A DNA stretch of 14,557 nucleotides from Sulfurihydrogenibium sp. (GCA_037442825.1 JBBIPN010000031.1:1-14557), one strand, 5' to 3'; positions 7,325 through 14,557 are shown, counted from the stretch's first letter. The notes: a model not told the origin generated them from the letters alone. Program-made: numbers and translations.

Positions 7325-7354
7325 TTGATTTAAATAATAAAAAGTAGTGTGTTT

Positions 7355-8707
7355 TTATAAATCTTCGGTATCTTTTATTTTCAGTTTTGATTTAAGAGTA
7401 TTTCTACTAATACCAAGAATATTTGCAACTTTTGTTTTATTATTTTCATATTTTTCAAGTAAAATTTTAATAATTTTTATCTCTAGATTTTCTATCATTC
7501 CTTTTATTTCCTCTTCATTAGTACTGTATATAAACTGTTTTATAATTTCTTCTAACACATCACATTTTTCACATGTATAATCTAAATTTAAACTGTTTAT
7601 GTATCCGTATTTAGTCTCTAAAACTCTCTTAAAAACAACATTCTTTAGTTCTCTAATATTTCCTTTCCATGGATAATTCTGTGCTTCTTTAATTGCTTCT
7701 TTTGTAAAACCATAAACATGGGTATTAAATTCTTCATTTGCAAGTTTTAGGAAATACATCATCAAGCTCTCAATATCTTCTTTTCTTTCTCTAAGTGGTG
7801 GTAGATGTATAGATAAACTGGAAATTCTATAAAACAGGTCTTCCCTAAATGTATTTTTAGTTATCATATCTTGTAAAGGTCTATTTGTGGCACAGATTAC
7901 TCTTACGTTAACTCTTTTTTCGGTTGTTTCTCCTATCTCATAAAATGTTCCATTTTCTAAAAATCTTAAAAGTTTTGATTGTAAACGATATGGTAAATCA
8001 CCTATTTCATCTAAAAATAAGGTTCCACCATCTGCCAACTTTACTTTTCCAGTTATATCTTTAACTGCTCCAGAAAAAGAACCTTTTTTAGCTCCAAAAA
8101 GTTCGCTTTCAAATAACTCAAAAGGAATAGCAGAACAGTTTAAAGCAACAAAAGGACCTTTACTTCTATAGGACCTTTCGTGAATGATCCTTGCAATTAC
8201 ATCTTTTCCAGTACCTGTCTCTCCTGTAATAAGAACAGGTATGTCAGATGATGCAGCTACCCCTACCATTTTAAAAACATCAAGCATTTTCTCAGAATTA
8301 GCTATAACATTTACAGATACGGTATCTTGATAATCTTTATAATCATTAACCTTAGAATTAAATACTTTCTTTACTAAATTTAATATCTCATCCTTTGTAA
8401 AAGGTTTTTTAACTACCTCAAAGGCACCATAAAAGGTTGCATCCATAAAGTTCTCTGGAGTAGCATATGCTGTTACGATAATCACAGGTAAGGTTTTTAA
8501 ATCTGAATTTTTAATAGTTTTTAGAAAATCTATTCCAGATTGATTCTTTAATCTTATATCTAAAATTAATAAGTCTGCATCTTTTATATCGCTTATATCA
8601 GGTATAGAAGAAAATGTTTCAACATCATAACCTTCTTCTTGAAATACCCTTTTTAAAGCATAGTTTACAGAACTTTCATCATCTATAACAACTATTTTAT
8701 TTTTCAT
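7355..8707 (-). CDS. aioR: NtrC-family (sigma54-type) response regulator, AioR-like
   Basis: Receiver domain (IDDE, LLILD, KKPF), AAA+ domain ([44 protein letters not shown]) and Fis-type HTH ([16 protein letters not shown]). The aio assignment comes from its position in the aioX-kinase operon next to aioBA. Confidence 0.82.
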
Positions 8708-10364
8708 TTAATATACAAACCTCCGTTTTATACTCAGGAACAATTATAGTAAAAGTAGTACCTTTTCCTTCTTCAGATTCTATTTCAAGGAAACCTCCTA
8801 AAACGTGGAGTATTTTTAAAACTATTGATAATCCAAGTCCTGTACCGTTTTCTTTATTTGTATAAAAAGGTTCAAAAATTTTATCAATGTCATCTTTTTT
8901 AATTCCTATACCTGTATCTTCTACTTTAAAATAGATTTTATCTCCTTTTTTTCTTACTTCTAACCTAATTATTCCCTTTTCTAATATTGCCTCTATACTA
9001 TTTGTTAAAAGATTCGTAATAATTAATTCCGTATGATCTTCAGGAAGAATTGCATAACTATCTTCCACATCAATTATAATATCAATATCCTTTTCAGGAT
9101 GTATATATCTTGTAATATTTTTTAAACATTTATTTATAAAATCTTTTAGATTAACAGTAGTATATGATGGGTTAGAAACCTTTACAAAATTTAAAAAGAT
9201 ATTTGATATTCTGTCAATCTTACAAACAGAATCTAAAATAACTTTAATATCTTCTTTTTGAATATTGTTAATATCTGAAAGTAGTCTAATAGGTAATATT
9301 GCATTTTTTACTTCATGAGCAAATGATGCGCTCATTTCTCCCATTTTAGATAAAACTTCCATCCTTCTTAGCATATCTTCAACTTTCTTTTTGTCTGTCA
9401 GATCAAAAATACTTACTACCTCAAATTTTTCACTTTTTACTTTTTCTATGTAAATATCAAAATTCCCTCTTTTTCCCTTAAATATAGCTTCCTTAGGAAT
9501 ATTTTTAAAATCTATAAAATCGTATAAATTTAAGTTTTCTAATTCTTCTTGTGTATAACCAAACTTTTCAATACTCTTATTAATCCATTCTATCTTTCCA
9601 TCAAAATCTGTTATTACAATAATTTCTCTAGTTGAATCTAATATATCCCTATAAAAATCATGAACATTTTTTAATTTTTCATATAGTCTTTTAACATCTT
9701 GAATGGTTTTATAAACAAATTGAGCAAAATCATAAATTTCATCTTTCTCAAGAAAATCTAATTTCTTTACTTCATCAAAATTACCTACTGATATCTTGTT
9801 CATCTCTTTTTTTATATCTTCCATTCTTTTTTTGATACGCTGCGCTATTAAAAAACCCAAAGTAGAACTAATAAATCCAGTAGACATAATAAAGATAAAA
9901 ATTATAACTGATGCATTTTTAAGTTCTTTTTCTAATATTTTTGGTTCTGTCTTTACTACAAGGTTGTATATATTGTTGCCATCATTACTTATACTATAAA
10001 ATTTATCATATTTATCGCGATATACATTTCCAATAGTATATTTCAATGGATTAGAACATACGATAACTTTACCATCTTTATCTAAAAAACATACTTCCTT
10101 TATATATGGATTTTCCAAAAGTCCTAAAGTAAATTTAAAAAGTCCCCAATAATCTTTATAAAGTAATTTTTGCTCAAAATCTAATCTTGAACTTTCAATA
10201 GTATTTGTAATTGTATCTTCATAATGTTTTAGCAAAGATTCTCTATAATGAGTAAATAGAAAGTAAGAAACTGGTAATAAACATATTAGAATAATTAAAA
10301 AAAAGCTAATTGAAAGTTTTGTCCCTATACTTAAAGACGTTATTTTATCTCTTACTTTTTTCAT
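8697..10364 (-). CDS. aioS: Membrane sensor histidine kinase (TM-periplasmic-TM-HAMP-PAS-HisKA-HATPase), AioS-like
   Basis: Two hydrophobic helices (about aa 17-38 and 153-174), H-box FAHEVKN, N-box NLLTNS, G1 DTGIGI, F-box FEPFYT and G2 GTGLGL. ATGA overlap with the aioX stop and 11-bp overlap with the aioR start. Confidence 0.82.
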   Translation of the reverse strand: MKKVRDKITSLSIGTKLSISFFLIILICLLPVSYFLFTHYRESLLKHYEDTITNTIESSRLDFEQKLLYKDYWGLFKFTLGLLENPYIKEVCFLDKDGKVIVCSNPLKYTIGNVYRDKYDKFYSISNDGNNIYNLVVKTEPKILEKELKNASVIIFIFIMSTGFISSTLGFLIAQRIKKRMEDIKKEMNKISVGNFDEVKKLDFLEKDEIYDFAQFVYKTIQDVKRLYEKLKNVHDFYRDILDSTREIIVITDFDGKIEWINKSIEKFGYTQEELENLNLYDFIDFKNIPKEAIFKGKRGNFDIYIEKVKSEKFEVVSIFDLTDKKKVEDMLRRMEVLSKMGEMSASFAHEVKNAILPIRLLSDINNIQKEDIKVILDSVCKIDRISNIFLNFVKVSNPSYTTVNLKDFINKCLKNITRYIHPEKDIDIIIDVEDSYAILPEDHTELIITNLLTNSIEAILEKGIIRLEVRKKGDKIYFKVEDTGIGIKKDDIDKIFEPFYTNKENGTGLGLSIVLKILHVLGGFLEIESEEGKGTTFTIIVPEYKTEVCILNEK

Positions 10365-11194
10365 CTTAAGTATTTGATCATTTTAAGTATTACATTGTAA
10401 TCTTCATCTTTTAAAGTATTAAAGCCATCTATTCCTAATTTTTGTAAAATTTCTTTTCCTCTTTTGTCATACTTCATATTTAAAAGCGTTTTTCTAATAG
10501 AAATTTTTACCTCATAAGGTATATTTTTTCTAATAACTATTGGTGTAGTAGGATACGGGCCAAATACATCAACAATTTTAATATGTGAAATAATTTCAGG
10601 TTTTGATTTTTCTACTTGATGGTAAACTATACTATCAACACTAGCACCTTCCACAAGACCATAGTAAACAGCATAAATAGATTCTACATGAGAATATGTA
10701 TATACTATAGGCTTAAAGAAGTTTCTGAAGTTATAACCTTTTTTCTTTATTACATAAGAAGGTACTATTGAACCAGAGTTTGAGTCTGGATCAGAGAAAG
10801 CATAAGGTTTGTTATGAAAATCAAATATAGATTTATATTTTTTTTCTTTCTTTGTAATCACATAGGAATAGTAGACGGGTTTACCATTTACTGTTGGAGC
10901 AACAGATAGTTCTACACCTAAAAACTCTCTTTCTTTCACGTAAGGAGCTCCACAAATAAATCCCATATCTATAAAACCTCTACTTAACATATAGTTCATT
11001 TCACTATAACTTTTTAAATAAAATGGGGCAAACTTATAACCAGTTTTTTTTGATAGATAATCTAAGAAAATTTTTATTACTGCTGAATCTTTCTGATTGA
11101 TTACTGCTGTAAAACCAAACTTGATTGTTTCTTGAGAAAAAGAACTTTTTAAATTTACAAATATTAAGAGTATCAAAGATAAATAAAAATACAT
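10361..11194 (-). CDS. aioX: Periplasmic arsenic-oxyanion-binding protein (PhnD-like fold), AioX/ArxX/ArrX family
   Basis: N-terminal hydrophobic signal. Motifs SYSE (Y63), FICGAPYV (C81), YYSY, FSDPDSNSG, YSH and GASVD. The Tyr-to-Cys spacing of 18 equals the Y88/C106 spacing I recall for Rhizobium NT-26 AioX. No ABC permease or ATPase is adjacent; it is coupled to a kinase instead. Confidence 0.88.
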   Translation of the reverse strand: MYFYLSLILLIFVNLKSSFSQETIKFGFTAVINQKDSAVIKIFLDYLSKKTGYKFAPFYLKSYSEMNYMLSRGFIDMGFICGAPYVKEREFLGVELSVAPTVNGKPVYYSYVITKKEKKYKSIFDFHNKPYAFSDPDSNSGSIVPSYVIKKKGYNFRNFFKPIVYTYSHVESIYAVYYGLVEGASVDSIVYHQVEKSKPEIISHIKIVDVFGPYPTTPIVIRKNIPYEVKISIRKTLLNMKYDKRGKEILQKLGIDGFNTLKDEDYNVILKMIKYLR

Positions 11195-11228
11195 TTTTCC
11201 TCAAAATAAAAAAATTTAAATCTTAATT

Positions 11229-11256
11229 AATATATATCTAAAAAGTTCCCTAGCAA
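11229..11256 (-). promoter_or_regulatory. Candidate sigma70-like promoter for aioXSR
   Basis: TTGCTA (11256-11251), 16-nt spacer, TATATT (11234-11229), lying between the aioA terminator and the GAGG RBS of aioX. Weak evidence in AT-rich DNA. Confidence 0.35.
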
Positions 11257-11261
11257 GATTC

Positions 11262-11291
11262 AAAAATAAAAAAGGGGGAATAACTCCCCCT
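11262..11291 (-). terminator. Intrinsic terminator after aioA
   Basis: Minus strand reads AGGGGGA-GTTAT-TCCCCCT followed by TTTTTATTTTT, starting 10 nt after the aioA stop. Confidence 0.85.
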
Positions 11292-11301
11292 CATTAGAAA
11301 A

Positions 11302-13914
11302 TTAGTCTTTAAAGTCGTTATTTGGTAAGAATGATGTGTATCTAAATAATTCTTTATTACTCTTTAATTTTCTGATAGCTACTCTTGAAGCCTTATACCA
11401 AGGTATAGTTGTTTTTGGATCTGTATAGTTTGTAGTTAAGTGGTTGAGGGATTCATAGAACCTATACATAATTCCAAAAACTGTTCCTGGTGGTGGAGCG
11501 TCGTTTACATAAACTACACAAACTGCATTTCCTTCCATATTGTAAATTTCTACTAAATCTCCACTCTCTAGACCTAGTCTTTTAGCATCTTCTGGATTTA
11601 CCTCTATATAAGGGAATGGTACTGTTAATACCTTCTCTGGAATATTTCTATCGTGGTATCCTGTTTGCCATACATGTTGGTTTCTACCATTTGTAAACCA
11701 GAATGGATACTTTTCTTTATTTCCACCTTTTAAATATTTAACTATTTGTGGTGGATAGAATTTTGTAGGATCTGGTTCCCAAGGATCTGTTCCATACCAT
11801 TTAAACTTACCATCTGGTGTTCCAAATCTATGAACATATCTTCTAACAGTTCCTACCAACTCTCCAGTTTTTGGATCTACCCTTACTGGAGTTTGAATAC
11901 CTTTTTGACCAACTTTTCTTAAGTATTCGTATGTTACACCTTTATAACACTCTGCTGGAAGTATTGCCTCATCAGCTTCAGAGAGTCTATTATCAGGAAA
12001 ATCTGATGCACCATCTAAGAATACATCTTCGTCTTTTTCCCAATCATAACCACTAAAGTATTTAGCTTCTTCATGATTTCCTTCAGCTTCATAAAGTTGT
12101 TTCATTCTTTTAGCAATTTGAGCATATATCCACCAGTCTGGTTTTGCTACACCAGGTGGATCCATAACTTTCTCGGATATTCTTAGTAATCTTGAGTTAC
12201 AGTTTATTGATGTTGTAGTTTTTTCAAGCCATCCAGCTGCAGGTAATACTAAATGTGCATCTTTTCCAGTTTCTGTCATATATATGTTAATTGATATTAA
12301 GAAAAGTCCATCTGTTTTTGACAATCCTTCAAGAATTCTTTTAGCTCTTTCTTCTGAACCTGAAGGTTCCCCTGATGTAGCGAGTGAGAGATAGTCAGTT
12401 AAAGCTTTAGTTCTTCTACCTACTTTCTTTTTGAAATCTTGAGAATTTGGAGTAGAAAGATATGGATCACAACCTGAAACTATGAAAACTTTTGCATTTA
12501 GGTTGTGTTTTACATAATCATCTATGTTTGGAGGTGGTCCACCTGCATATATAGAACCTACAAGATTAGCTCTTGATTTACCATGTGGTCTAACATAACC
12601 TTCTTGGTGTCCTCCCTGTCTTCCACAACCAGTACCTGGTTTACCATAGTTTCCAGATATAGCTGCAAGTTGAGCGATTGCTGCAATTGTATCGTAGTTT
12701 TTATATCCCCAAATTACACCTTTTTCGTAGATTATTAATGTTCTTCTTCTATGTCCTCCAGATTTAGGTTTTGATATCCATTCTGCAGCTTTTTCTATAT
12801 CTTTAACAGGTACCCCAGTGAGTTTTTCTACTCTTTTCATAAATTCATCATAAGATACGTCTAACATAAGAGATTTTTTCTTATAATCTTCAAATGTTTT
12901 TAAATCTGTTCTATTTTTAATTAGATGTTCATCATGCCATCTTTTTTCATATATAACTCTTGAAATTGCATTTGCTAATACATAATCTGTTCCTGGGTTT
13001 AGTTGTAAATGGAGAACTCTACTACTATCTATACTTTCTGCTACTTTATAAGATGCTGTTTTTCTTATATCAACAACAACCATTCTTGCTGGTTCAATAG
13101 GTTCTCCTTTTGCATACACTTTTCTTTTATCTTCTTCTGTTGCACCTTGGAAGTTTGGAAGCATATGTTGAGTATAAAATACAGATGCTGTTTCAAAACT
13201 GTTTGCACCCCAAAGAACTATAGTATCAGCAAGTCTAGCATCTTCCCACATATAGTTTAATTCATGTGTACCTCTTTCCCTTTGACCCCAAACTTCTGAG
13301 TTATAAGCTGGTCTGTTATGTATAGACAGCATTCTTGTTGCTAAAGATATAAAATAGAACTTTCCAACAGCCCAGTTATCTTCAAAACCTGCTCCGGAGC
13401 CACCGTGGTCATGTGTTTTCATTGCAATAGAATCGTTACCAAAATTATCTCTAACTCCTTTTAAAACTCTTGCAACTATATCTATAGCCTCTTCCCAGCT
13501 AATAGGTTGAAACTGACCACCAACTTTAAGGAGAGGATAAGTTAATCTTTCTTTTGTTGGACGTGTTGGTGAATAAGTTGTAATTGCGTTTGTACCACCT
13601 CTTGCAGAATAGTTACCTTGGTTTATAGGTGATTGAGGAGAAGGAACTACCAATAGGTTATATCTTTGACCATCATGATCAACGATTGTAGTATGCATTG
13701 TTTCAGTAAAAGCTTGTCCTTGAAGTGCAATTTGCTGTTTACTAAAATCTATACCTAACGCATTTTCGTTAGGTGCTAATCCGCCTTCTTTACCTACAGG
13801 CCATTTGTATACATCATAACCACATCCTACGTTACAGTACTGACAAAATGTAATTGTTTTTTGGGCATCTTTTGGTGGGATAGGTAATTTGTCTCTTCTT
13901 GCAAAAACAGCCAT
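11302..13914 (-). CDS. aioA: Arsenite oxidase large subunit (Mo-bisPGD, [3Fe-4S]; DMSO reductase family)
   Basis: N-terminal RDKLPIPP, [3Fe-4S] motif C24-X2-C27-X3-C31...S103 (CQYCNVGC...SARGG), DHGG, arsenite-site motif HNRPAYNSE, GGHQEGY, NGR..WQT.YH and C-terminal PWYK. No signal peptide of its own. AGGAGGT RBS at 13923-13929. Confidence 0.97.
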   Translation of the reverse strand: MAVFARRDKLPIPPKDAQKTITFCQYCNVGCGYDVYKWPVGKEGGLAPNENALGIDFSKQQIALQGQAFTETMHTTIVDHDGQRYNLLVVPSPQSPINQGNYSARGGTNAITTYSPTRPTKERLTYPLLKVGGQFQPISWEEAIDIVARVLKGVRDNFGNDSIAMKTHDHGGSGAGFEDNWAVGKFYFISLATRMLSIHNRPAYNSEVWGQRERGTHELNYMWEDARLADTIVLWGANSFETASVFYTQHMLPNFQGATEEDKRKVYAKGEPIEPARMVVVDIRKTASYKVAESIDSSRVLHLQLNPGTDYVLANAISRVIYEKRWHDEHLIKNRTDLKTFEDYKKKSLMLDVSYDEFMKRVEKLTGVPVKDIEKAAEWISKPKSGGHRRRTLIIYEKGVIWGYKNYDTIAAIAQLAAISGNYGKPGTGCGRQGGHQEGYVRPHGKSRANLVGSIYAGGPPPNIDDYVKHNLNAKVFIVSGCDPYLSTPNSQDFKKKVGRRTKALTDYLSLATSGEPSGSEERAKRILEGLSKTDGLFLISINIYMTETGKDAHLVLPAAGWLEKTTTSINCNSRLLRISEKVMDPPGVAKPDWWIYAQIAKRMKQLYEAEGNHEEAKYFSGYDWEKDEDVFLDGASDFPDNRLSEADEAILPAECYKGVTYEYLRKVGQKGIQTPVRVDPKTGELVGTVRRYVHRFGTPDGKFKWYGTDPWEPDPTKFYPPQIVKYLKGGNKEKYPFWFTNGRNQHVWQTGYHDRNIPEKVLTVPFPYIEVNPEDAKRLGLESGDLVEIYNMEGNAVCVVYVNDAPPPGTVFGIMYRFYESLNHLTTNYTDPKTTIPWYKASRVAIRKLKSNKELFRYTSFLPNNDFKD

Positions 13915-13940
13915 GAATCAATACCTCCTATAAATTATTT

Positions 13941-14435
13941 TTAACTTCTTGGTATTAAATTAATTGCTCTTCCCCAAATAAGTCCTTCTACACCTGCAGC
14001 ATAAATATTACCTTGAGAATCTACAGAAAGTGTGATTTGTGGTAACCATTGGGAAGCATGTCCTTGGTAAACTTGACCATTTTTTGCTGGATCAAACATA
14101 GAGTAATGACATTTACAAATCAATCTTCCTTTTGAATAGTTCACAGGACAGCCTTGGTGAGTACAATGTGCAGAAAATGCAACAATGTCCTTTTTAGGAC
14201 CTATACCACCTATCGCAGGTTTTCCAAGTTTAACCAAGATAGCTATAGATTCACTATCTGGATAGTTAAATGTGATTGGTGAATGGTCTTTAAGTTCTTT
14301 GATGTTTGCGATCTTAGCTCTTTTGTATGGTAGAGAAGGAGCTTCAAATGCCTTTGCAAACTTATACCCAGAAGCCCAAAATCCAGCAACAGCTGTACCT
14401 GCTAAAAAACCTCTCCTTGTTAAACTTAATCTCAT
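13941..14435 (-). CDS. aioB: Arsenite oxidase small Rieske [2Fe-2S] subunit with Tat signal
   Basis: Twin-arginine LTRRGFL, FNYPD, GGIGP..DIVAFS, Rieske motifs CTHQGC and CKCHYS.FD, and C-terminal GLIWGR. Lies directly upstream of aioA. AGGAGGTG RBS at 14441-14448. Confidence 0.97.
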   Translation of the reverse strand: MRLSLTRRGFLAGTAVAGFWASGYKFAKAFEAPSLPYKRAKIANIKELKDHSPITFNYPDSESIAILVKLGKPAIGGIGPKKDIVAFSAHCTHQGCPVNYSKGRLICKCHYSMFDPAKNGQVYQGHASQWLPQITLSVDSQGNIYAAGVEGLIWGRAINLIPRS

Positions 14436-14458: not shown

Positions 14459-14506
14459 AAAAAAAGCCAACTGCCCCTTTTTTAATACGATAAGGAAAGC
14501 AGTTGG
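14459..14506 (-). terminator. Terminator-like hairpin plus U7 in the aioB leader (possible attenuator)
   Basis: Minus strand reads CCAACUGCUUU...GGGGCAGUUGG (8 Watson-Crick pairs + 3 G-U pairs), then C and U7. It ends 10 nt before the aioB RBS. Confidence 0.6.
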
Positions 14507-14519
14507 ATTGGCAGCAGCA

Positions 14520-14548
14520 ATCTTAAAACTCTAATTGTAATCTTGCAA
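14520..14548 (-). promoter_or_regulatory. Candidate sigma70-type promoter for aioBA
   Basis: -35 TTGCAA (14548-14543), exact 17-nt spacer, -10 TAAGAT (14525-14520). The predicted start is near 14512-14514, just 5' of the leader hairpin. Confidence 0.5.
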
Positions 14549-14557
14549 ATATTTCAT

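Follow-up and report, generated by a model that had tools for sequence, protein, structure and literature searches.

An AioX-type sensor trio beside a Thermus-type arsenite oxidase in Sulfurihydrogenibium and its probable sigma-54 target promoter

Gene content of the locus

The window analyzed here, a 14,557-nt stretch of DNA from Sulfurihydrogenibium sp. (genome G000), carries five intact open reading frames on the minus strand (7355..14435). They read in the order aioB, aioA, X, S, and R, with a putative intrinsic terminator between aioA and X. The first-pass annotation had described five co-oriented genes with aioBA split by a terminator from a translationally coupled X-S-R operon, and this layout holds: the stem lies at 11261..11292 and the reading frames overlap by 4 nt (X/S) and 11 nt (S/R). 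The genes flanking the cluster encode the N-terminal half of CarB (571 aa) and a piece of LeuS (607 aa), and we take split carB and leuS genes to be a marker of Aquificota. The relatives of the locus, found by a phylum search and among named loci, were placed in Aquificaceae and Hydrogenothermaceae, which agrees with the earlier assignment of the host to Aquificota and not to the proteobacteria. The GC3 of the cluster (0.14-0.19) matches that of the flanks (0.16-0.19), and composition therefore gives no sign of recent import.

The aioB gene (13941..14435) encodes the Rieske subunit (164 aa; TIGR02694, 186 bits against an NCBIfam cut-off of 96) with a twin-arginine motif (TRRGFL) and the motifs CTHQGC and CKCHYS. 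This gene with its Tat signal lies directly upstream of aioA (11302..13914), which encodes the molybdopterin subunit of 870 aa (TIGR02693, 1056 bits, cut-off 359). AioA has the C-x2-C-x3-C motif for a 3Fe-4S cluster (CQYCNVGC, residues 24-31), keeps the active-site stretches HNRPAYNSE and RQGGHQEG, and matches arsenite oxidases in the PDB with an E-value of 1e-170. Its identity is 59% to all nine Thermus plasmid records (9/9) and about 38% to alpha- and betaproteobacterial records among the matches listed. Judged from these profiles, motifs, and trees, the AioBA of the window is an arsenite oxidase with an AioA of the Thermus/Aquificota type, as had been proposed from the N-terminus. A common origin of AioA in this genome and in the same-genus genome G135 was rejected (AU p 0.00021), the group for this test having been chosen after the first tree was seen.

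A GC-rich stem with a U tail (11292-11272) begins 10 nt past the aioA stop codon and was called by the terminator scan (z -1.8, with 9 of 200 shuffles folding as well). At the other end of the cluster, the last codons of a porin gene (...ARLQLEF and the stop; 14523..14557, minus strand) precede aioB. The porin assignment rests on 127-nt exact contig overlaps, the reading frame, the promoter DNA, a run contig bridging window and C133, and the barrel model of a close homologue. Between porin and aioB, a hairpin followed by seven U (14459..14506; minus strand) has a predicted fold of -16.8 kcal/mol (z -2.0, 6/200 shuffles as good). The terminator scan did not call it, and it is possibly a partial terminator or an RNA-stabilizing stem.

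The binding protein X and its candidate ligand

The X gene (10361..11194) encodes a periplasmic binding protein of 277 aa whose best PDB matches are AioX (4e-35) and ArrX (1e-33), with PtxB and PhnD following at 1e-13 or weaker. All seven AioX pocket residues, as listed by PMC5908839 (Y88, C106, Y131, S161, S163, H192, and D210 in NT-26 AioX numbering), are present in X as Y63, C81, Y108, S138, S140, H169, and D187, the arsenite cysteine included. Databases label the Aquificota X proteins as PhnD, and the scores with Pfam PF12974 (177 bits) and TIGR01098 (above cut-off) would suit a phosphonate or phosphite transport protein of the PhnD/PtxB type. However, X reaches only 133 bits on the PhnD equivalog model (cut-off 261), has the AioX-specific residues C81 and D187 at positions occupied by G and N in PhnD, and is coupled to a kinase gene. 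A grouping of X with PhnD and PtxB is rejected (AU p 0.00085); no ABC permease or ATPase reading frame and no phnC or phnE neighbor was found in the window, and phnE has no match in this genome. We consider the transport reading effectively refuted. By trees and residues X is a member of the AioX family separate from PhnD/PtxB, and the earlier description of X as AioX-like is thus upheld.

Pocket residues alone do not settle arsenite versus arsenate (PMC5908839). ArrX, from the ArrXSR systems of Chrysiogenes arsenatis and Sulfurospirillum, has the same pocket (PMC5908839) and scores close to AioX against our protein, and X could therefore, like ArrX, respond to arsenate or to a thioarsenic anion, with the oxidase induced by its product or a related species. 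The same XSR lineage adjoins Ttr-like operons: ttr-like genes occur in 5/5 Aquificota genomes with X only (in one case seen as a ttrB start where the contig breaks off) and at 8 of 27 loci of a Campylobacterota-like sister group, three loci of which have arrAB-like genes behind aioBA. Ttr homologues have been reported as arsenate reductases (PMC11462812). The loop ahead of the pocket bears on both sides. X aligns without gaps to the AioX loop V56-F57-L58 as V31-I32-N33, so that the length and two of three positions are kept while the third is polar; V56 and a hydrophobic residue at 57 are absent from ArrX per PMC5908839, and the ArrX alignment begins only at residue 43, past the loop. Moreover, X has N139, as do all 15 aio-linked sister proteins, where seven of eight ttr-linked ones have T, and no ttrA orthologue was found in this genome. 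A ligand other than arsenite is considered unlikely, and arsenite is the probable ligand of X.

The kinase, the activator, and the porin-aioBA promoter

S (8697..10364; 555 aa) is a histidine kinase with two membrane helices, a periplasmic domain with a DYW motif, a PAS insert, and H350, as determined from Pfam, hydropathy, and motifs. H350 is invariant in 29/29 aligned sequences. The match to an AioS/ArxS profile (hhalign E 1.6e-38) spans 440 columns, the periplasmic region among them, which supports the AioS-like assignment. R (7355..8707; 450 aa) has a receiver domain with D10, D50, and K101, an AAA+ domain, and a Fis-type HTH (Pfam, alignment), the organization of a sigma-54 activator. In the tree, R falls in a clade separate from proteobacterial AioR (supports of 97 and 100) and the two clades are not joined with support. 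The sister relation implied by naming this gene aioR was therefore not borne out, which lowers the case that R is AioR by descent, not the case that it may work like AioR. The genome has rpoN and five activator-like loci besides R.

No sigma-54 promoter was found directly before aioB (best scores of -1.0 in the window and 4.4 on contig C133), nor any sigma-54 site or box 3' of the porin-aioB hairpin, and the upstream contigs were therefore examined. The porin gene heads the unit upstream of aioB, with its remainder on contigs C133 and C42. A sigma-54 site at C42:11041-11058 precedes it, and ahead of this site, at a distance of 40 nt, lies a paired box (C42:10965-11002) composed of two identical 17-bp copies in tandem. 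Wherever the DNA ahead of another Aquificota aioB gene could be read (20 of 20 genes), it contains a sigma-54-like site with a paired box 51-77 nt in front, a wider spacing than the 40 nt at C42. With a box model learned from these 20 promoters, the C42 site being outside the training set, a scan of the 1.35-Mb genome gives the C42 site the highest score (35.9; next independent site 14.1), while five locally shuffled genomes gave top scores of 13.1-21.1; the seed motif was written after the repeat in this genome had been seen. Within 515 kb of loci, each of the 28 box matches scoring above 16 lies no more than 130 nt from a sigma-54-like site, and the eight non-training matches among them stand before porin genes, ttrB-like genes, or one gene for an FAD protein. 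The assignment of this promoter to porin-aioBA rests on the contig chain and on congener synteny. The contigs join by 127-nt exact overlaps, and one run contig bridges the window and C133; a single contig bridging C133 and C42 was absent in the four runs examined. The chain is backed by the congener G136, where the N-terminal part of carB, an aioR remnant, thiE, and the C-terminal part of carB lie on one contig.

A different sigma-54 activator might bind the box, X-S-R controlling another target and lying next to aioBA incidentally. The five further activator-like loci would allow this, and three genomes (G034, G052, G068) keep box and sigma-54 site, and neither an X nor an R orthologue was found there. 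On the other side, R adjoins aioBA in 15 genomes, distant XSR genes often lie beside other box-bearing genes, and the HTH of R is near-invariant among these R proteins and unlike that of the paralogue and of proteobacterial AioR. No second strong box appeared in the whole-genome scan. This alternative is very unlikely, and control of the C42 promoter by R is probable.

We also considered a former arsenite switch that is now weakened or uncoupled in this lineage, leaving aioBA silent, constitutive, or under another activator. The AAA+ loop of R reads GSFSGA, whereas GAFTGA is found in 19/19 of the other R proteins from Aquificota; the promoter has TTGA instead of TTGC at -12, and the U-run hairpin stands before aioB. 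In G136, the nearest congener, only a decayed 3' aioR piece is left at the site, and X or S genes are split or have in-frame stops in G050, G065, G077, G081, and G082, where assembly errors are possible. Close relatives have GSFSGS in the loop. Against such decay, the five reading frames are intact, the two boxes match each other exactly and score highest in the genome, TTGA recurs in G095 and at several other sigma-54-like sites of this genome, and another activator here has the loop GSFTGA. Identity to related proteins from other assemblies is 90% (R), 91% (X), and 94% (AioA), near the 94% of LeuS, and thus there is no sign of collapse. Loss of coupling is therefore an unlikely reading.

Considering the above, the trio likely senses periplasmic arsenite and likely switches on a sigma-54 promoter, located just outside the window, that would drive porin-aioB-aioA. 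Arsenite would bind C81 of X, as the complete pocket and the AioX-length loop suggest, and X would stimulate S; by analogy with AioXSR, and with the residues present, phosphate would pass from H350 to D50 of R. Phosphorylated R would then bind the two boxes and activate the sigma-54 site. A single porin-aioB-aioA transcript would end at the stem 3' of aioA, the hairpin before aioB giving more porin than oxidase message, and X-S-R would be transcribed separately. A sigma-70-like candidate before X (11256-11229) was discarded as evidence, since the 44 such sites found are about the number expected by chance (41.8).

The porin matches no Pfam family above cut-off. A close homologue is modeled as an 18-strand barrel (pLDDT 89 from a 94-row alignment; 29 from a single sequence) that superimposes on AlgE with Z 29.5 and an rmsd of 3.0 over 337 aligned residues at about 15% identity. 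The porin has many conserved arginines. Both fold and arginines are common to AlgE/OprD-type outer-membrane channels, but the porin here is linked to arsenic genes instead of alginate. It is predicted to be an anion-favoring channel and, in the weakest step of this reasoning, would most simply be the outer-membrane route for arsenic oxyanions.

Distribution and relation to known systems

Among 178 Aquificota genomes, X is present in 24. X and AioA occur together in 19, AioA only in four, X only in five, and neither in 150; these counts include kin that are not independent. The 19 genomes show four gene orders, and the order with XSR downstream was found in this genome only (1/19), making it a local rearrangement. 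R adjoins aioBA in this genome, divergently in seven, upstream in four (two cut by contig ends), and as R only in three; in G035, G135, and G138, R is kept and neither X nor S orthologues were found. The box recurs in the sister group, where the Aquificota model finds sigma-54 sites in only 10/23 box-bearing loci. Within Aquificota, the box stands ahead of aioBA, of the porin gene, and of some Ttr-like reductase operons. Its presence before every ttr-like operon did not hold (of ten with readable upstream DNA, six have it, one weakly, and three lack it). This genome additionally has an arsR-arsP-arsC-arsB operon.

The spread of XSR with its own enhancer box across Aquificota is the weightier finding than the gene order. 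The locus had been presented as a little-described pairing of Aio with XSR in a different order. The pairing part stands, as no report of it was found in the literature searched; the arsenic loci listed by phylum in PMC9582695 may already include Aquificae aioBAXSR rows. The order part does not, being local and having a precedent, since PMC6549141 describes downstream same-strand XSR in arx clusters of two Thioalkalivibrio strains. According to PMC3834237 and PMC5908839, aioXSR is restricted to Alpha- and Betaproteobacteria, and Aio elsewhere has no XSR, its mode of control being described there as unknown.

The AioX-AioS-AioR systems of Rhizobium (Pseudorhizobium) sp. NT-26, Agrobacterium tumefaciens 5A/GW4, and Herminiimonas arsenicoxydans share with our locus the X-S-R order and coupling, the complete pocket, a homologous kinase with the periplasmic D-x-W motif, an NtrC-type activator, and a sigma-54 site with upstream palindromes before the oxidase operon. 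The present system differs in phylum, in the Thermus-type AioA, and in the position of the trio downstream of aioBA. X is 29% identical to proteobacterial AioX and has, by eye, no twin-arginine leader, S has an extra PAS domain, and R belongs to a separate clade. The box, TGNTCAAAWTTTGANCA present twice with a period of 20-22 bp, is unlike the proteobacterial AioR site GTT-N10-AAC (PMC5335332), and the Aquificota box gave no match above 16 in three proteobacterial loci scanned. A porin heads the operon here, and aioA is not followed by a gene for cytochrome c or by moeA. ArxXSR (Alkalilimnicola, Sulfuricella skB26, Thioalkalivibrio) has the same X pocket, with Ile at loop position 57 as in our protein, but its partner is Arx instead of Aio and its X and R fall in different clades. 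ArrXSR differs in its loop and in its partner, which is an oxidase here; the X trees contain no verified ArrX sequence. The ArrR of Campylobacterota belongs to the AAA+ activators as well (PMC5908839). The nearest named AioA is that of Thermus thermophilus HB8, whose aioBA locus has an ArsR gene and, unlike ours, no XSR within 7 kb on each side; PMC2848651 reports no sigma-54 motif there.

Aquificota are major arsenite oxidizers of hot springs. For this phylum, the locus offers a specific, testable answer on Aio control, comprising sensor, activator, binding box, and promoter. Its XSR argues against the proteobacterial origin of aioXSR suggested in PMC3834237 and accords with the early origin favored in PMC5908839. 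The box could also help to flag new arsenic genes, such as the uncharacterized porin family and the Ttr-like reductases. We tentatively propose, at somewhat less than even odds, that a third arsenic XSR lineage in Aquificota and Campylobacterota, mislabeled as PhnD, serves as the master switch for arsenic and has an enhancer of its own, co-inducing arsenite oxidase of two unrelated clades, an arginine-lined arsenic-oxyanion channel, and Ttr-like or Arr reductases. If true, the Ttr-like enzymes of Aquificaceae would be arsenic reductases, and in hot-spring and vent bacteria a single switch would govern the arsenic redox cycle in both its halves. Sensing applications would benefit from a heat-stable arsenite binder, and a homologue named from the cultured species Hydrogenivirga caldilitoris makes bench tests feasible.

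The oxidase cluster and its probable sensory trio

The genome (G000) spans 1.35 Mb in 137 contigs, with a completeness of 99% and a GC content of 28.9%, and it contains rpoN; the window is the whole of its contig C31. Five minus-strand open reading frames fit the description in the first-pass annotation: aioB (13941-14435) and aioA (11302-13914), both widely exceeding their curated cut-offs, followed by X (10361-11194; AioX-like periplasmic binding protein), S (8697-10364; histidine kinase), and R (7355-8707; sigma-54 activator). The terminator proposed between aioBA and XSR corresponds to a terminator-like stem directly 3' of aioA, detected by terminator scan and folding, and the downstream genes overlap (X/S by 4 nt, S/R by 11 nt). 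Only 29 nt (7326-7354), with no called terminator, separate the stop codon of R from the first carB start codon, so transcription of XSR may run on into carB and leuS.

AioA shares 59% identity with Thermus enzymes and approximately 38% with those listed from alpha- and betaproteobacteria. In trees it falls in a fully supported Aquificota clade adjoining Thermus, and its earlier assignment to the Thermus/Aquificae type thus holds. AioA of the same-genus genome G135 groups with that of G035 and with genus g19, and grouping with G000 was rejected (AU p 0.00021); from these sequences, the clusters of the two congeners likely differ in their histories. In G095, the sole X carrier of the same family, AioA is just 43% identical to that of the window. 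It groups with enzymes of the sister group, a Campylobacterota-like XSR lineage from metagenome loci, and its gene lies inside an arsR-arsB-arsC cluster (L058). The nearest congener (G136) has carB-N, thiE, and carB-C on a single contig, and a decayed aioR piece and a chemoreceptor gene occupy the site of the G000 cluster. This remnant indicates that the cluster was likely present here in the common ancestor and then lost in G136.

Among solved structures, X best matches AioX (4e-35) and ArrX (1e-33), with PtxB and PhnD at 1e-13 or weaker. X retains every one of the seven AioX pocket residues given in PMC5908839 (Y63, C81, Y108, S138, S140, H169, D187), and the signalling loop aligns without gaps, AioX residues V56, F57, and L58 corresponding to V31, I32, and N33. 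In a 26-row tree, X belongs to an Aquificota clade (100/99) joined to the sister group (98/96), while PhnD, PtxB, and a paralogue are all separate. Grouping of X with PhnD and PtxB was rejected (AU p 0.00085), which upholds the AioX-like identity given in the first-pass annotation. A quick 123-row tree, leaving out rows outside 250-345 aa and library matches after P0169, places X, NT-26 AioX, and Sulfuricella ArxX in one 63-row clade (99); both trees were built without a verified ArrX. The named relatives of X are Aquificaceae, Thermocrinis, Aquifex, and one Hydrogenothermaceae (19/19 loci). The profile search was topped by four proteins of 551-574 aa with two X-like domains each (P0079, P0080, P0088, P0170). 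A Bacillus pseudomycoides plasmid (L076) carries a gene annotated as phnD, coupled to a kinase and a regulator, whose product keeps most of the pocket with Ser in place of the AioX Cys.

S matches the AioS/ArxS profile over 440 columns, including the periplasmic part, and carries one extra PAS domain. R is a receiver-AAA+-HTH activator that forms a clade with Aquificota and sister-group R proteins in a quick tree (97); proteobacterial AioR/ArxR stand apart (100), with no supported join between the two clades. Judged by sequence, X and S are members of the AioXSR family, with R and its box as a separate branch. All 19 other Aquificota R proteins contain the loop GAFTGA, which reads GSFSGA in this R; the Thr of GAFTGA matters for sigma-54 contact.

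The porin, its promoter, and the paired box

No sigma-54 site is present directly before aioB, which is preceded by a hairpin with seven U. The right end of the window shares an exact 127-nt overlap with contig C133, which in turn overlaps contig C42 by 127 nt. Together, these contigs encode a porin-like ORF co-oriented with aioB, with its stop codon at window position 14523-14525. Upstream of it, beyond the window, are a sigma-54-like site, TGGCAC-N5-TTGA (C42:11043), whose -12 element is TTGA, and two identical 17-bp boxes with a 21-bp period (C42:10965-11002). One public run, possibly of the source sample, contains a 7135-nt contig that bridges the first junction, covering 6420 nt on the window side and 733 nt in C133; no contig in four public runs bridges C133 and C42. 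A full-length porin homologue matches the two porin pieces at 92% and 89% identity. The longest contig is 18842 both for this homologue and for near-identical AioA, S, and X, which presumably share one contig. The bridging contig, this homologue, and the gene arrangement in G136 support the joining of the contigs. The porin gene on C133 (L069) shows strong strain variation in the public runs (many substitutions, loop indels), the likely cause of the contig breaks. TTGA at -12 recurs in several top sigma-54-like sites of G000 (C42, C126, C3, C119, C8, C128, C53), and the site on C119 precedes another porin-like gene.

The porin was modelled as an 18-strand barrel (pLDDT 89) with AlgE as the closest fold (Z 29.5, rmsd 3.0, 337 aligned), and ten arginines are kept in at least 94% of 94 rows; its putative substrates are arsenic oxyanions. 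It occurs in 21 of 178 Aquificota genomes, 19 of which also have X or AioA. In divergent-type clusters (L031:3838-4663, with equivalents in L032, L033, L035, and L036), two small conserved ORFs follow the porin, one of ~135-150 aa without a family and one of 122 aa with a weak Rossmann fold. G000 is without them.

Readable DNA before aioB is available for 20 of the 22 other Aquificota genomes with AioA. All 20 have a sigma-54-like site and, 51-77 nt before it, the paired palindrome TGNTCAAAWTTTGANCA with a 20-22 bp period. With a matrix made from these 20 relatives, the C42 site is the top-scoring one in G000 (35.9; next independent site 14.1; maxima of 13.1-21.1 on five locally shuffled genomes); G000 was excluded from the matrix, but the seed was written with the G000 repeat already seen, and the ranking is not a fully blind test. 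In 515 kb of loci, the 28 matches above 16 all have a sigma-54-like site within 130 nt and comprise the 20 training sites and eight before porin, ttrB-like, and one FAD-protein gene. A further 121 kb yielded nine matches above 10, before porin or ttrB-like genes, eight with a sigma-54-like site. Three proteobacterial aio/arx loci gave no match above 16; the published AioR site is GTT-N10-AAC (PMC5335332). An FAD oxidoreductase (409-411 aa) is a possible further member of the regulon that the box probably marks. Its gene comes after aioA in G075, preceded by a box of its own (L047:14904-16272), and lies close to remnants of the porin gene in G050 and G051 (L136:7639-8868, L140:3157-4386). The database N-termini of P0039, P0045, P0047, and P0048 include QKLT-like repeats at a seven-residue spacing. 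These repeats are the box pair in translation, so the annotated starts are probably too early.

Distribution, gene order, and the Ttr-like link

An X orthologue (identity of at least 45%) is found in 24 of the 178 genomes, AioA in 23, both in 19, and neither in 150; no statistic is attached to these counts, since related genomes are not independent and many assemblies lack part of the genome. Most X carriers share the order of G000 and belong to a different family, the family of G000 being likely Hydrogenothermaceae. Where both are present, XSR is divergent from aioBA in seven genomes, upstream and co-oriented in four (two cut by contig ends), and not adjacent in seven (two on one contig 350-410 kb apart, five on separate contigs). 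The downstream order singled out in the first-pass annotation is confined to G000 among these 19, but it has a precedent in two Thioalkalivibrio strains with arxXSR downstream on the same strand (PMC6549141), and order matters little. In the loci comparison, R alone precedes aioBA in G135 (L061:1208-2584), G138 (L063:4843-6219), and the complete genome G035 (L064:12161-13537), where neither X nor S orthologues were found. These clusters are nearly identical across two families and keep the box and sigma-54 site. In their receivers, T-D-Y replaces T-A-Y and KKPL replaces KKPF, and this R is possibly a sensor-independent activator.

A close TtrA-like enzyme is encoded in 12 Aquificaceae genomes, nine of them with X; two more have S and R beside its gene, X being cut off. 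The sister group comprises 27 metagenome loci, and one of its protein clusters bears the name Aliarcobacter cryaerophilus. XSR lies divergently to aioBA in 15 of these loci and to a Ttr-like operon in eight (L116-L118, L120-L124), with four lacking context, and the box is present in 23. Position N139 of X, which corresponds to N162 of AioX, is T in 7/8 ttr-linked and N in 15/15 aio-linked sister-group X proteins. PhnD and PtxB have Thr here too, and the change may mark a switch to binding a tetrahedral anion. Ttr homologues have been reported as arsenate reductases (PMC11462812). Three sister-group loci (L108:707-7865, L110, L112) have arrAB-like genes behind aioBA (ArrA score 1086, below the cut-off of 1600). 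Their aioB-aioA-nrfD-arrA-arrB-like genes share one orientation with a single box ahead, so that oxidase and reductase apparently form one operon.

Proposed signalling and a second trio

The observed genes, residues, and sites, and their conservation, most likely reflect a pathway from arsenite through X, S, and R to the sigma-54 promoter of porin-aioB-aioA. Arsenite would bind C81 of X, S would phosphorylate R, and R would bind the paired box and open the promoter, with porin, aioB, and aioA read as one unit; the trio would then work like AioXSR. Against this count GSFSGA in R, TTGA at -12, the seven-U hairpin before aioB, and the box kept in G034, G052, and G068, where no X or R orthologue was found. 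A further point against it is that the pocket residues by themselves do not distinguish proteins that bind arsenite from those that bind arsenate (PMC5908839).

AioXSR with Aio has been described from Alpha/Betaproteobacteria only (PMC5908839, PMC3834237), and the accessible text of PMC3834237 has no mention of Aquif or porin. Three aio arrangements are listed in PMC7533571 (same-direction, divergent, absent), and the aio genes of Thermus and Chloroflexus are described as having no sigma-54 motif ahead (PMC2848651). AioBAXSR loci were counted widely in PMC9582695, the supplement of which may hold Aquificae rows. We found no paper on XSR in Aquificota in literature mostly outside subscription, so an earlier published description may exist. 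What merits follow-up is the system's spread across the phylum, together with its enhancer, the porin, and the link to Ttr-like genes.

G000 encodes a second binding protein-kinase-sigma-54 activator trio (C1:24091-27747; L068:10074-13748), which is a possible sulfur-compound sensor. The binding protein shares 21% identity with X; it retains a Cys where AioX has one but lacks the other pocket residues, and its gene lies immediately upstream of genes for cytochrome c and for flavocytochrome-like and sox-like proteins. Weak homologues (23-27%) are present in 13 further genomes, all but one from the same family.
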